64,000 nt of DNA from Candidatus Sumerlaeota bacterium (lineage in GTDB: Bacteria; Bacillota; SLNR01). The notes under the pieces are model-generated. The model made no database searches. It had not been told where the DNA came from and was given only the letters and a program-made list of their open reading frames with translations. Positions 49,100-52,386 of the stretch are shown here, piece by piece (positions within the stretch are counted from its first letter, which is position 1; each line of letters opens with the position of its first letter). The stretch lies in NCBI GenBank assembly GCA_040766585.1, contig JAXGQE010000007.1:69325-133324 (forward strand). Reading direction: 5' to 3'. The position numbers and the translations under genes are program-made.

Positions 49100-49828
49100 T
49101 CATGGCTGGACAGTATCCTGATATACAATGGCCTGTCCGGGACACTTTTCCACGGTTTCCCGCACCTTTCCTCCCACTTTGGGGCTGTTGGGTACCGTAA
49201 TCACTACCGCTCTACCGTCTTCCATGCGGTAGCACTGGGGAAGGATGCGGACACACAGACCGCAGCCGAGGCAGTATTCTGGAATTACTTCCAGAACAGG
49301 GCGGCTTTCATCATTTACAGCGGGTAAATCTTCCTTCGTAACCAGAGTACCGGTCAGGTACGCCATCAAGAATATGGCGCAAACGGTCAGCACCCAGCGT
49401 ACAGCCATGAATTCAGGCCCCAGAAATCGAATTTCATTGGCCAGCATGGGCACTTTGATCACAGCCCAGGCACTGAGAATGATGACAATGTTTCCGATGC
49501 TGGCTCCCTTTGCCAGCAAAGTCTTGCTGACGGGAAAGGCGGCATAGATGGGCCCGGCTGACAGGCTGCCCAGCATCAGCGCCAAGACATTGCCTTTCAG
49601 CCCGGATTTTTCGCCAAATCCCCGTAGAATCATCTCTTTGGGAACCAGTGCTTCCAAAACCACAGTAAACAAAAATATGACAGGAAGCACCAGGATCATC
49701 TCTTTGAGATAGTAGAGGCTGTTTTGAAAGGAAGTCCGAGCCAGATCCGGGGAAAAAACCATGAGTCCGGAATAAAGGGCCGCCACAATCACCAGCATCA
49801 TATTTTGCCTCAGAAAATTTTTCATCAT
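49100..49828 (-). CDS. DUF318/ArsP-like permease subunit fused to a C-terminal ferredoxin domain
   Basis: GSLSAGPIYAAFP...KVPM TM region, then CLGCGLCVRILP...CPGQAI. Confidence 0.82.
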   Translation of the reverse strand: MMKNFLRQNMMLVIVAALYSGLMVFSPDLARTSFQNSLYYLKEMILVLPVIFLFTVVLEALVPKEMILRGFGEKSGLKGNVLALMLGSLSAGPIYAAFPVSKTLLAKGASIGNIVIILSAWAVIKVPMLANEIRFLGPEFMAVRWVLTVCAIFLMAYLTGTLVTKEDLPAVNDESRPVLEVIPEYCLGCGLCVRILPQCYRMEDGRAVVITVPNSPKVGGKVRETVEKCPGQAIVYQDTVQP

Positions 49829-50316
49829 CCCATCAGCACCCCCATGGCCAGAGCAATGAGTACGGCAAAACCAAAACTGAAAAGATTGCGGGTCAGAGCA
49901 AATCGAGTTCCAAATTCTTTTCGCTCCAGGGGAAATGTGACTGCACCAACCATGGTTAATGTGGTGAGAAACGCCACACCCGGTACAATACTAGCCCCCA
50001 CATCCACCAGAGAACCCACCAGCGGGAATGCCACAAATGCAGGGATCAGTGTAATGCTTCCCACCAAAGCGGCCGCTACGGTGGCTGTCCCTAAATTGGC
50101 TTTCCCCAGTACCTGCTGGATGGTCTGCGGTGGAATCAGAGTTAAAATTAAACCAATCAGAAAAATGATGCCGACAATATCTCCCAGCATGCTTCCCATC
50201 ATTCCCCGGGATTTTTGAGCCGCCTCCAAAGTCTTCTTTCGATCTTTAATCAAAGAGATTGCTGTAAGGAACAACGCTGTGATCCAAAATCCTTTTGTAA
50301 ATACATCCATATACAC
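49825..50316 (-). CDS. DUF318/ArsP-like permease subunit
   Basis: GSITLIPAFVAFP, RFALTRN; overlaps its partner by 4 nt. Confidence 0.82.
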   Translation of the reverse strand: MYMDVFTKGFWITALFLTAISLIKDRKKTLEAAQKSRGMMGSMLGDIVGIIFLIGLILTLIPPQTIQQVLGKANLGTATVAAALVGSITLIPAFVAFPLVGSLVDVGASIVPGVAFLTTLTMVGAVTFPLERKEFGTRFALTRNLFSFGFAVLIALAMGVLMG

Positions 50317-50371
50317 CCTACCTCCTGACAGTCAGTGGATCGTACAAAAGGCATTGTATTACATGTCAAAG

Positions 50372-50401
50372 AAAAAAAGTGTTACCGAAGTAACACTTTT
50401 T
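50372..50401. terminator. Perfect hairpin with C(UUCG)G loop on -
   Basis: AAAAAGTGTTAC-CGAA-GTAACACTTTTT; lies between the selenoprotein genes and the permeases. Confidence 0.8.
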
Positions 50402-50525
50402 CGAATTCGATCCATCAGGCCATTGATCTCCCCCTGCTGTTAAAAAGCTGTACCATCACCTTGACAGATCAAAAGAAGCTGCATTAGAGAAAATGCATTC
50501 GACAAGGTTCCTAGCTGAACGCTGC

Positions 50526-51746
50526 TCAAACTTCCAGTTCCTTCAAAAATCGATTGGGAATAATGCGTCCAGACGCCTTCTTGCTGAGACTTTCATGCTC
50601 TGAGTTCAGACAAAATTGTCTCAGTTGCTGAAGAACTTTCCCGGCCATTGTATTTTTCCAGAACCAGCGTTCAATATCGTCTCCTTTCAGATGACTCGTA
50701 CCCGGACGTAGGGATAGTGCTTGATAATAGAACGACTTCAAATCATCCACCGCATAGCGCAGACGGGCGGCCCATGCGCCATCTTCATCGCTCATCATAT
50801 CCATTTCACCGCTCATCACTTCTCCCAGCCAAGAGGCAATCTCTTCGGCAGTCATTCCGCTGATCCCCTTGTACGAACGGTCAGCGTGTTCGCTCTTTTC
50901 AGTCCATTCACGACGGAAAGCTTGAATCTCAGCATGCAGCTGTCGAAATAGGACTCGATCCTCTCCCGAATCATCTGAGGGAATGTATGGGCAAGCCAAC
51001 AGGATAGGATCCGCATCTCCCACCGGTGCCTCCTCGGTGTAATCAGCCAGAACAGGGCCTTCCTTTTCCTGCAGCAGACTCAGTGCCGCTTTGAGCACCC
51101 TCTTTTGAAAAGCACCATCGTGGGGCACTCCCAGGGGGCGCCCCAGTTCAAACGGAACCCATAAGGCCCGAGGTGGTCGAATCTTTTCAGTATGCAATCG
51201 GATCAGACTGATCTGGGTAGTGGAAAACCCCTGATCCTCCAAAAAATGCCCCAATGCGCCCACGGCGCATGTGCATAAAGGTCAAACCGGAACCAGGAGC
51301 ACCGCATCCACATGGTCTTGTCGGAGCTGATCCGCCAGTTTCTCAACGGCCGGTCTCCATGTCATGGGGTTCTCTGCACCCATGAATGAATAATGGCGGG
51401 AGGCAACTGAAGCAATGAAGCCCTCGTCTTGCAACTCTTTGAGTCGATCCAGGGGAAATACCACATTGAAATCCTGATAAAATCCCGACCGATCGTAATT
51501 GACGGACACATGACTCATCACCAAGTCCTGGACTGGAATCTCCTTGGGAATAACACGATACTTTTCGGGATTGGAGCCATCAAACGGATCATCCTGCACC
51601 GTATGAAGACCCGCCGTGGACACAATCGCCACCCGCAGACGATTCAGCCGATCCGGGATCACAAACGGTGTATGGGAAAACGACGGACAGGCGTAGTTTT
51701 CATGAAAGCGCCTCTCGCCTGCACTCATGGTTTCCATGCGCACCAT
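50526..51746 (-). CDS. PrdB/GrdB-like selenoprotein (U155, UxxC) with C-terminal extension, 406 aa
   Basis: ORFs 51282-51764 and 50526-51263 share a frame and are separated only by TGA 51282-51284, giving DAVLLVPV-U-PLCTCAVG. N-domain RVAIVSTAG...FPLDRLKEL...SFMG. SECIS-like hairpin follows. Confidence 0.88.
51246..51276 (-). promoter_or_regulatory. Putative bacterial SECIS element
   Basis: ATGCGCC-GTG-GGCGCAT stem at 51254-51270, starting 12 nt after UGA with G first in the loop; lower ATGC/GCAT stem possible. Confidence 0.7.
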
Positions 51747-51771
51747 GGTATCACCACCTTTCAATCTTTAT

Positions 51772-52386
51772 TCATGGGCTCTTTTTATTCGGTATTGTTT
51801 GATCCAAAAAATGGGCGACGTCTTCATGGGACGCCCAGCGGTCGTGGTACACGATGACGCCATCCGGACCGATGATATAGACCATATTGGGACATCCACC
51901 GTAACTCATGTAAAAATCGTTATCCATGGTGTCCAACACCGTTTTTCGCTGAATGCCGCAGTCCTTCACCGTATCACCAGCCAGTTTCATCCGCTGGTGG
52001 TAGGTTTGGGGCTGGACAATATCTTCATACCCTCTCTCGCCCGGATGAGGTTCAAGAATATAGACCAACAAAAATTCTACACCGCGCTTTTTGTATTCCC
52101 GGGCCAATTCTTCCATGGGAGGCACCTGCCTCCGAAACGGGTCTCAAGTAAATGACCCTACTTCCACCACGAGATATTTCCCGGCGTAGTCGGCCAGGGA
52201 CACTGATTCACCATCCAGGGTTTTCAGTGAAAAATCTGGCGCCCGTGTACCCGGAGGCATGTAGCATTCAAAATCTTTGTAGTGCCGGCCGTCATCACCG
52301 CGGCGGATGTTCTCTTCTTCTTGCATAATACGGGCTATTTCAATCATCTCTTCGGGAAAGCCGGGAGGAAACTCATGCACTTTCAT
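51772..52386 (-). CDS. Iodothyronine-deiodinase-like thioredoxin-fold selenoprotein (U81, SxxU), 204 aa
   Basis: ORFs 52144-52386 and 51772-52125 join in frame through TGA 52144-52146, giving APDFSL...VVEVGSFT-U-DPF...FLLVYILEPHP...YGGCPNMVYII. Confidence 0.88.
52118..52133 (-). promoter_or_regulatory. Putative bacterial SECIS element
   Basis: GGAGGC-AGGT-GCCTCC hairpin starting 11 nt after UGA; loop contains GG. Confidence 0.7.

Follow-up and report, generated by a model that had tools for sequence, protein, structure and literature searches.

Paired deiodinase-like and PrdB-like selenoprotein genes in a Sumerlaeota-type bacterium: a possible two-selenoprotein redox relay

Background

Do four apparently short open reading frames (ORFs) of a Sumerlaeota-type bacterium conceal two selenoprotein genes and, if so, do the two products work together? 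The locus that raises this question occupies positions 52386-49100, on the minus strand, of a 64-kb stretch of Candidatus Sumerlaeota contig JAXGQE010000007.1 (hereafter the window, i.e. the whole stretch analysed). An original prediction, made from the letters alone, had recognised there a deiodinase-like and a PrdB-like selenoprotein gene in tandem, followed by a permease-ferredoxin pair. Our comparative analysis confirms two selenocysteine (Sec) genes, suggests that they were inherited together within one PrdB-like subclade, and is compatible with a redox partnership between their products.

Results and discussion

Two genes, each interrupted by one UGA

Translation with table 11 yielded four minus-strand ORFs, at 52386-52144 (80 aa), 52125-51772 (117 aa), 51764-51282 (160 aa) and 51263-50526 (245 aa). 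When one TGA in each ORF pair was read as Sec, these collapsed, as originally predicted, into two proteins of 204 and 406 amino acids (Table 1). Each gene displayed its own Shine-Dalgarno sequence: GAGGTG at 52397-52392, five nt 5' of ATG 52386, for the deiodinase-like gene, and AGGTGGTGA at 51759-51751, four nt 5' of ATG 51746, for the PrdB-like gene. Only 25 nt, with no terminator between, separated the stop codon of the former (51774-51772) from the ATG of the latter. Both start codons were considered fixed since homologues share the N-termini M-[KP]-VHEFPPGFP (deiodinase-like) and MVRL (PrdB-like). The ordinary stop codon of both genes was itself TGA, so that UGA is not reassigned genome-wide. 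When the window was scanned for in-frame TGAs flanked on both sides by ORF segments of 60 codons or more, these two were the only credible Sec cases.

Sec decoding of the two codons

By comparative criteria, both UGAs are Sec codons. PrdB-like relatives were collected by an alignment-based scan of one genome per species, which found more than 566 of them, and the best 80 were checked for the codon; a search of genome contigs with a single-protein pattern gave no match where the alignment-based one did. TGA occupied the aligned codon (U-P-x-C-T-R) in 80/80 of these best loci, as well as in L004, L005, L174 and L175 (related loci are designated by L numbers). Likewise, it was present in all 13 deiodinase-like loci fetched. 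Full-length database forms of the PrdB-like protein (about 415 aa) carried Cys at this position, and so did nine of the ten full-length deiodinase-like homologues returned by an exhaustive HMMER search, the tenth having Ser. Homologues thus aligned across both codons with TGA or Cys there, in agreement with the prediction. Identity was similar on either side of each UGA in both genes. The databases also held hundreds of PrdB-like fragments of about 245 aa, representing the part after the TGA, together with fragments of about 113 aa; standard gene calling cuts both selenoprotein genes in two and leaves such pieces behind.

Each UGA was followed, after 10 and 11 nt respectively, by a hairpin resembling a bacterial selenocysteine insertion sequence (bSECIS; Table 1). 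For the PrdB-like hairpin, 89% of cells were paired in an alignment of 84 sequences, against 31-58% when partner columns were slid. Double-change (compensatory) cells numbered 20, against 4.3 +/- 1.8 in shuffles, none of 500 shuffles reaching the observed value; in one example, an Arg-to-Cys change (CGC>UGC) was matched by a synonymous GCG>GCA change on the opposite stem strand. The stem of the deiodinase-like hairpin varied as GGAAGC/GCUUCC (L001, L086), GGAGCC/GGCUCC (L006) or through a G-U wobble (L005), and its loop stayed AGGU or AGAU although the encoded residues changed. Both hairpins showed the features expected of a bSECIS, namely a spacing of about 11 nt, a G in a small apical loop and covariation; no SECIS family reached threshold in the Rfam scan. 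Finally, both TGAs were kept in contigs that come from independent runs on sediment, anaerobic digester and soil metagenomes, while adjacent synonymous sites varied, at 52147 in the deiodinase-like gene and at 51279 and 51288 in the PrdB-like gene.

The two selenoproteins

The deiodinase-like gene product is a thioredoxin-fold member of the iodothyronine-deiodinase family. It matched T4_deiodinase (PF00837) with an E-value of 2.3e-15 (57 bits vs a cutoff of 27) and, nearly equally, AhpC-TSA with 5e-14 (52.7 bits). The cutoff of NCBIfam NF038285 deiodinase_rel was not reached (87 bits vs 250), only positions 180-323 of this 347-position model being matched. Its motifs were GSFT-U-DPF, where Asp stands for Pro at +1 of G-S-x-T-U-P-P-F, and YILEPHP. 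The best PDB matches by sequence were mouse Dio3 (4TR3, 1.5e-10) and Dio2 (9H48, 2.2e-10), the next one following at 8e-08; U81 aligned with the catalytic Sec position of Dio3 and YILEPHP with YIEEAHP. A profile of 17 bacterial deiodinase-like relatives matched Dio3 at 1e-27 and ResA at 6e-15. The AlphaFold2 (AF2) model (pLDDT 84.5) displayed a thioredoxin fold that matched ResA-type proteins and Dio2/Dio3 about equally, the former with slightly better E-values and the latter with the top TM-scores (0.67, 0.65) and identities. The protein contains a single catalytic Sec (T-U-D-P-F) and the family E-x-H motif, and is devoid of a resolving Cys conserved across the clade.

The PrdB-like protein belongs to a widespread orphan 'PrdB' selenoprotein family (about 400 aa, U-P-x-C-T-R, marine and sediment metagenomes). 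Its first ~230 residues form the PrdB-like domain and the last ~180 a helical C-terminal extension. It matched GRDB (PF07355) at 1.1e-09 (38.5 bits vs a cutoff of 22), over model positions 199-345 only, and TIGR04483 PrdB at 5.4e-29, with 101.3 bits, below the equivalog cutoff of 300; the subfamily cutoff of TIGR01918 (65) was not reached either (32 bits). The U-x-x-C motif lay at the aligned GRDB site as U155-P-L-C158, U155 and C158 being invariant and C252 nearly so. Database matches numbered 1826 at E <= 1e-5, and identity to 82 loci, all with TGA, was 41-55% over 380-406 residues. The AF2 model formed one compact unit (pLDDT 90.8, pTM 0.91) for which the fold search returned no PDB match at E <= 1e-3; a PDB sequence search likewise gave none. 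A pyruvoyl PrdA/GrdE partner, GrdA and PrdC were all missing from the scanned ORFs of the window and from the paired loci. Both family labels proposed from the sequence were upheld, and both genes are genuine selenoprotein genes.

Linkage of the two genes across relatives

A deiodinase-like gene lay within 8 kb of the PrdB-like gene in 5/82 distinct PrdB-like loci, and a rough binomial estimate for at least 5/82 by chance was ~1e-4. When 83 PrdB-like proteins were placed on a maximum-likelihood tree, the window protein and those of L005, L007, L006 and L004 formed an exclusive clade (support 100/96), and all five members held a deiodinase-like Sec gene within 8 kb. A sixth case, L053, fell elsewhere in the tree. 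The pairing label needed 2 changes on this tree vs 5.9 in shuffles (0/500). The clade spans three phyla, i.e. Sumerlaeota (the window lineage and L007, a metagenome-assembled genome or MAG), Bacillota (L006, a Clostridiales MAG) and Chloroflexota (L004, a Chloroflexi MAG). ArgH of the window showed 85% and 79% identity to its counterparts in Sumerlaeota MAGs, which makes the bacterium a relative of that group.

Two further contigs, L174 and L175, repeated the order of the window (deiodinase-like, PrdB-like, half-permease, permease-ferredoxin) with TGA in both Sec genes, the first gene of L174 being cut by the contig end and unannotated. The two Sec genes were contiguous and on the same strand in 6/7 distinct paired loci. 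Identity of the deiodinase-like protein to that of the window decreased from L005 (~75%) through L001 (~70%) and L006 (43%) to L004 (32%), and the PrdB-like partners followed the same rank order, which suggests that the two genes were inherited together within one PrdB-like subclade. In L001, a gene for an iron-sulfur-flavoprotein (ISF)-like FMN reductase sits between them; in L086, the same ISF-like gene follows the deiodinase-like gene, then the contig ends. In L004, the intervening gene encodes an F5/8-type-C protein.

Two of these loci deserve a separate description. L004 (JACPQC010000034, 2900-11600) displayed the order deiodinase-like, F5/8-type-C, PrdB-like and LGT genes, followed on the opposite strand by genes for an HMA P-type ATPase, a DUF7482 protein and a flavoprotein past the MerA equivalog cutoff (531 vs 454 bits). 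L006 (JAGXRM010000055, 1-9300) is a multi-selenoprotein island in which the deiodinase-like and the long PrdB-like genes are 7 kb apart. It starts with the deiodinase-like gene (U), a 369-aa protein and a 200-aa CC-motif membrane protein, neither of the latter two matching NCBIfam. It continues with a short PrdB-like gene that lacks the C-terminal extension (TPG-U-PLC), an LGT homologue and CcdA/DsbD_TM, and ends with a secreted thioredoxin-like protein with W-U-x-x-C, a BlaR/BlaI-like pair and the long PrdB-like gene (U).

Proposed function and alternative explanations

On comparative grounds, we give about an even chance to a bicistronic operon of a Sumerlaeota-type bacterium whose two selenoproteins would cooperate as a cytoplasmic selenol/thiol redox relay. 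The Sec of the deiodinase-like protein would attack an oxidising or electrophilic small molecule, most likely a peroxide, with halogenated or other electrophiles as a possibility. The U-x-x-C of the PrdB-like protein would then resolve the Se-OH or Se-X so formed via a transient Se-Se or Se-S bond, and Fe-S or flavin carriers would re-reduce the PrdB-like protein, a candidate being the product of the ISF-like gene that follows the deiodinase-like gene in L001 and L086. We infer both substrate and direction. Peroxide is the most economical guess in view of a peroxiredoxin-like fold, an ISF-like gene nearby and habitats that are anaerobic; resolution of the deiodinase-like protein by the PrdB-like one is favoured since the former has no Cys conserved across the clade, the latter has U155, C158 and C252, and flavoproteins occur as neighbours of PrdB-like genes. 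The relay with PrdB-like re-reduction put forward in the original prediction thus fits the chemistry (no clade-conserved resolving Cys in one protein, UxxC in the other) and is plausible. Its proposed dehalogenation or arsenical substrates fared less well: nothing points there specifically, no reductive dehalogenase or other halogen-related context was found, and the permease halves lack metal(loid) Cys motifs (see below). A bolder version appears doubtful, namely an obligate two-selenoprotein enzyme in which ferredoxin or ISF electrons would pass through an inter-subunit diselenide to a small-molecule oxidant or organohalide. If true, such a diselenide-linked pair would represent a previously unknown type of selenoenzyme system and would give a function to two long-orphan families, one of them being among the most abundant selenoprotein families of the sea.

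Several observations weigh against cooperation of the two proteins. About 94% of the sampled PrdB-like genes had no deiodinase-like neighbour and none of the seven distant deiodinase-like loci had a PrdB-like one; the coupling is therefore clade-specific. The conserved co-occurrence that had been anticipated is therefore found in one PrdB-like subclade (5/5 members, three phyla) and not in the families as wholes (5/82; 0/7). Moreover, the clade members from different phyla are MAGs, in which binning errors are possible. In L004 the pair has heavy-metal genes on its flanks (MerA equivalog, HMA ATPase), as it does in L007 (P1B ATPase, CsoR-like), so that a different chemistry is possible. The electron donor is not encoded in the window's own operon, and the 64-kb window contained no tRNA gene and, among the ORFs scanned, no sel gene.

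The roles of the two proteins might also be reversed, a scheme we regard as rather improbable. The PrdB-like protein would then be the reductase that cleaves a small molecule, by attack of its Sec on a carbon or heteroatom, the helical C-terminal domain would replace the pyruvoyl subunit, and the deiodinase-like protein would be a dedicated redox partner, as thioredoxin/GrdA or PrdC are for GrdB/PrdB. This scheme agrees with the catalytic, substrate-binding role of the characterised GrdB and PrdB subunits (PMC13188914), with the compact PrdB-like model, and with a PrdB-like family that is large and mostly stand-alone, as expected of an enzyme; in addition, ResA/TlpA-type reductants are among the closest folds to the deiodinase-like model. 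Yet the deiodinase-like protein has only one clade-conserved redox residue and therefore cannot alone be a two-electron dithiol donor. Nor did the scanned window ORFs or the paired loci include a pyruvoyl proprotein, and the PrdB-like protein remained below the PrdB and GrdB equivalog cutoffs.

Handling of soft metals or organometal(loid)s, where Sec and Cys would bind or reduce Hg, Cu or As species for export by neighbouring transporters, is unlikely in our opinion. The MerA equivalog (531 bits vs 454) and HMA P-type ATPase beside the pair in L004, the heavy-metal P1B ATPase and CsoR-like repressor in L007, and the MerR regulators adjoining six PrdB-like genes could be read in this sense. So could the ArsP-family permease of the window, given that SAO/SaoE is a selenoprotein system with an ArsP-family exporter (10.1101/2022.07.06.499078). 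However, no metal genes were found near the pair in the window, L005, L174 or L175, and a true MerA was restricted to L004, the other flavoproteins being at most 36% identical. Furthermore, neither permease half has a CSC or vicinal-Cys motif like those of SaoE, SO_0444 and ArsP, and the distribution of the permease-ferredoxin family is much wider than that of the pair.

There is only a slim likelihood that the two are real selenoproteins but functionally unrelated neighbours, brought together by shared ancestry or by co-localisation of Sec genes. The neighbours of PrdB-like genes are indeed heterogeneous overall, four of the seven paired loci represent one Sumerlaeota-type lineage with the same synteny, and L006 combines several selenoproteins with 7 kb between the two genes. 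Yet the two genes still occur together where identity has dropped to 32-43% for the deiodinase-like and about 50% for the PrdB-like protein, in three phyla and with wholly changed flanks; the identity ranks, in the same order for both proteins in L005, L001/L007 and L006, suggest congruent trees; and the 25-nt spacing contains no terminator. As for the TGAs being true stops (leaving four small ORFs or pseudogenes) or UGA being recoded to another amino acid, this is hardly credible given the positional conservation of TGA across many phyla (more than 90 loci), homologues with Cys there, covarying hairpins, conservation of both halves of each protein and the use of TGA to terminate both genes.

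The permease-ferredoxin pair and the spacer

The DUF318-like permease pair, one member with a ferredoxin domain, was confirmed downstream, the spacer from the PrdB-like stop to the first half-permease measuring 209 nt. This spacer contains a palindromic hairpin (Table 1) whose core, GTGTTAC-N4-GTAACA, was kept just 5' of a TATAAT-like box in L005, L174 and L175, making four diverged contigs with the window; orthologues of the 163-aa half-permease in these three relatives were 73-77% identical. The palindrome may serve as a terminator, or as an operator where a repressor of the permease promoter binds. L005 and L174 displayed in addition a GC-rich terminator directly after the PrdB-like gene. 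Together, the spacer hairpin, the TATAAT-like box and these terminators indicate that the selenoprotein genes probably form a bicistronic unit and that the permease genes probably have their own regulated promoter.

The permease-ferredoxin fusion had at least 1576 homologues at E <= 1e-10 and is thus far more widespread than the selenoprotein pair; the best 120 listed were 56-76% identical and included Clostridia, Cloacimonetes, Acholeplasmataceae and Methanobrevibacter. Its database label was only 'permease/YraQ'. Both halves matched PF03773, the first without any Cys and the second with a single transmembrane Cys. The Cys motifs (vicinal Cys or C-S-C) described for ArsP-family metal(loid) exporters (10.1101/2022.07.06.499078) and found in ArsP, SaoE and SO_0444 were absent from both halves. 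Adjacency of the permease genes to the selenoprotein genes was kept in the Sumerlaeota-type lineage (four contigs, ~54% PrdB-like identity, different flanks in L175) and not beyond. We infer that the permease-ferredoxin genes constitute a module of their own, transcribed separately and generally independent. The possible connection of the selenoproteins to transport, suggested at the outset, is accordingly disfavoured by the terminator-like hairpin lying between them and by the stand-alone distribution of the fusion.

Gene neighbours of the PrdB-like family

No universally conserved neighbour emerged among 147 heterogeneous neighbours of PrdB-like genes. The commonest were HTH_17/MEDS regulators (10-11/147), followed by MerR (adjoining six PrdB-like genes), Pyr_redox_2, HAD, GST, SelD-like AIRS and FMN_red. 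An AIRS/AIRS_C (SelD-like) gene was the immediate neighbour of four PrdB-like genes in other phyla. ISF-like FMN reductases (Cys-rich NGCxGCLxC) adjoined PrdB-like genes in several unrelated lineages (L007, L008, L025, L064) and one was located at a distance of 1.7 kb in L065. These reductases are candidate electron donors. Homologues of class-I disulfide reductases were recorded within about 6 kb of the PrdB-like gene in nine loci. A general link of PrdB-like loci with MerA was considered and rejected: only the L004 flavoprotein is MerA, the others being at most 36% identical to it.

Other features of the window

The 171-nt leader between the amidohydrolase and deiodinase-like genes (52387-52557, minus strand) was strongly structured (z = -3.4 for 52387-52530) and shared the block ATCGTGACAAAGG / ATCATGACAGAGG with L005; it matched no Rfam family. 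RNA-seq support for co-transcription was sought, and the locus sequence was present only in DNA metagenome runs. The upstream amidohydrolase gene is probably transcribed as a unit of its own.

Downstream of the permease pair, positions 45077-48440 (minus strand) hold a cluster encoding a Fer2_4 protein, a 636-aa FAD/NAD/4Fe-4S/SO_alpha_A3 oxidoreductase and a DAO flavoprotein. This cluster, which resembles those of opine, sarcosine or proline dehydrogenases, was syntenic in L005 and L174 and not in L175. The only Rfam match of the window was a c-di-AMP (ydaO/yuaA) riboswitch at 12901-13027 (minus strand, 97 bits), upstream of a TrkA-domain gene and adjoining TrkH/TrkA potassium-transporter genes (12147-15986).

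Table 1. Coordinates of the features discussed, in the window unless a related locus is named
Feature	Position	Strand	Remarks
TRZ/ATZ-MtaD-type amidohydrolase	52558..53955	-	upstream; syntenic in L005 and L175
Promoter-like site TTTTCA-16-TACAAT	52400..52427	-	upstream of deiodinase-like gene; 9/12 consensus match only, not enriched over shuffles
Deiodinase-like selenoprotein gene	51772..52386	-	204 aa, Sec81, stop TGA 51774-51772
In-frame UGA (U81), deiodinase-like gene	52144..52146	-	motif VEVGSFT-U-DPFRRQ
bSECIS-like hairpin GGAGGC-AGGU-GCCUCC	52118..52133	-	10 nt after deiodinase-like UGA
PrdB/GrdB-like selenoprotein gene	50526..51746	-	406 aa, Sec155, counted from ATG 51746
In-frame UGA (U155), PrdB-like gene	51282..51284	-	motif LLVPV-U-PLCTCA
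bSECIS-like hairpin AUGCGCC-GUG-GGCGCAU	51254..51270	-	11 nt after PrdB-like UGA
13-bp palindromic hairpin AAAAAGUGUUAC-UUCG-GUAACACUUUUU with U-run	50373..50402	-	between PrdB-like and permease genes
Same palindrome in relatives	L005 ~6395-6420; L174 ~2915-2940; L175 ~6640-6665		
ArsP_1/DUF318 half-permease	49825..50316	-	163 aa, no Cys
ArsP_1/DUF318 half-permease with C-terminal Fer4_13 (single-cluster 4Fe-4S ferredoxin)	49100..49828	-	242 aa
Intrinsic-terminator-like site	49058..49083	-	after permease-ferredoxin gene
ISF-like FMN reductase genes in relatives	L007 7334-7978; L086 1167-1721		

Relation to known systems and significance

The deiodinase-like protein shares with the animal deiodinases Dio1-3 (PF00837; 4TR3, 9H48) a thioredoxin/peroxiredoxin-like fold, a Sec within G-S-x-T-U-x-P-F and a Y-I-x-E-x-H-P motif. 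It differs from them by an Asp in place of the Pro that follows Sec (UDPF), a trait of the Sumerlaeota-type subfamily, by a conserved 45-residue N-terminal extension, by the absence of a membrane anchor, by a substrate that cannot be thyroid hormone, and by sharing an operon with a PrdB-like selenoprotein. Its SECIS lies inside the coding region, as in the bacterial deiodinase-like selenoproteins of the Sargasso Sea and Global Ocean Sampling (GOS) surveys (PMC1088965). With PrdB and GrdB/F/H (PF07355, TIGR04483, TIGR01918), the PrdB-like protein has in common a homologous domain of about 200 residues, the Sec of U-x-x-C and a SECIS directly 3'. Unlike PrdB and GrdB, it scored far under the cutoffs (101 vs 300; 32 vs 65), had no PrdA/GrdE, GrdA or PrdC among the window ORFs scanned, and carried about 180 additional C-terminal residues that form a helical domain; no solved structure resembles its model.

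In its proposed logic, the relay would recall AhpC/AhpF, Prx/Trx and Tpx/Trx recycling, where a thioredoxin-fold protein with a peroxidatic Sec or Cys is recycled by a flavoprotein-fed dithiol (here selenol-thiol) protein, except that the putative recycling partner would be PrdB-fold instead of thioredoxin-fold or AhpF-type. As in known selenoprotein operons, co-operonic selenoproteins are presumed to share one redox pathway. A 2026 review lists grdA-grdB, prdB-prdC, frhA-frhD-hdrA, Prx-SelW-like, Prx-like-AhpD-like, SAO and Tso (PMC13188914). The deiodinase-like/PrdB-like pair is not among them and no description of it was found in the literature searched, in line with the original prediction; the same literature contained no paper combining Sumerlaeota with selenocysteine.

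The Sargasso Sea and GOS surveys (PMC1088965, PMC2398784) had already listed both families among the selenoproteins. The orphan family appears there under the name 'Proline reductase PrdB' (UxxC), with 235 Sec and 110 Cys forms in GOS (PMC2398784), and 22 Sec forms are given for 'Deiodinase-like'. Neither is new, since both have been known as selenoproteins since 2005. The genes described here are new members of known families, and what appears new is the linkage of the two; no new family or chemistry is demonstrated.

The finding flags selenocysteine use in Sumerlaeota. It also concerns an orphan 'PrdB' family that ranks with the most abundant selenoprotein families of marine metagenomes. Two soluble proteins, complemented by an ISF-like flavoprotein in some relatives, offer a defined small system for reconstitution. 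A coherent operonic pairing across phyla provides a first functional clue for both families, with the hypothesis that the two proteins may exchange reducing equivalents.

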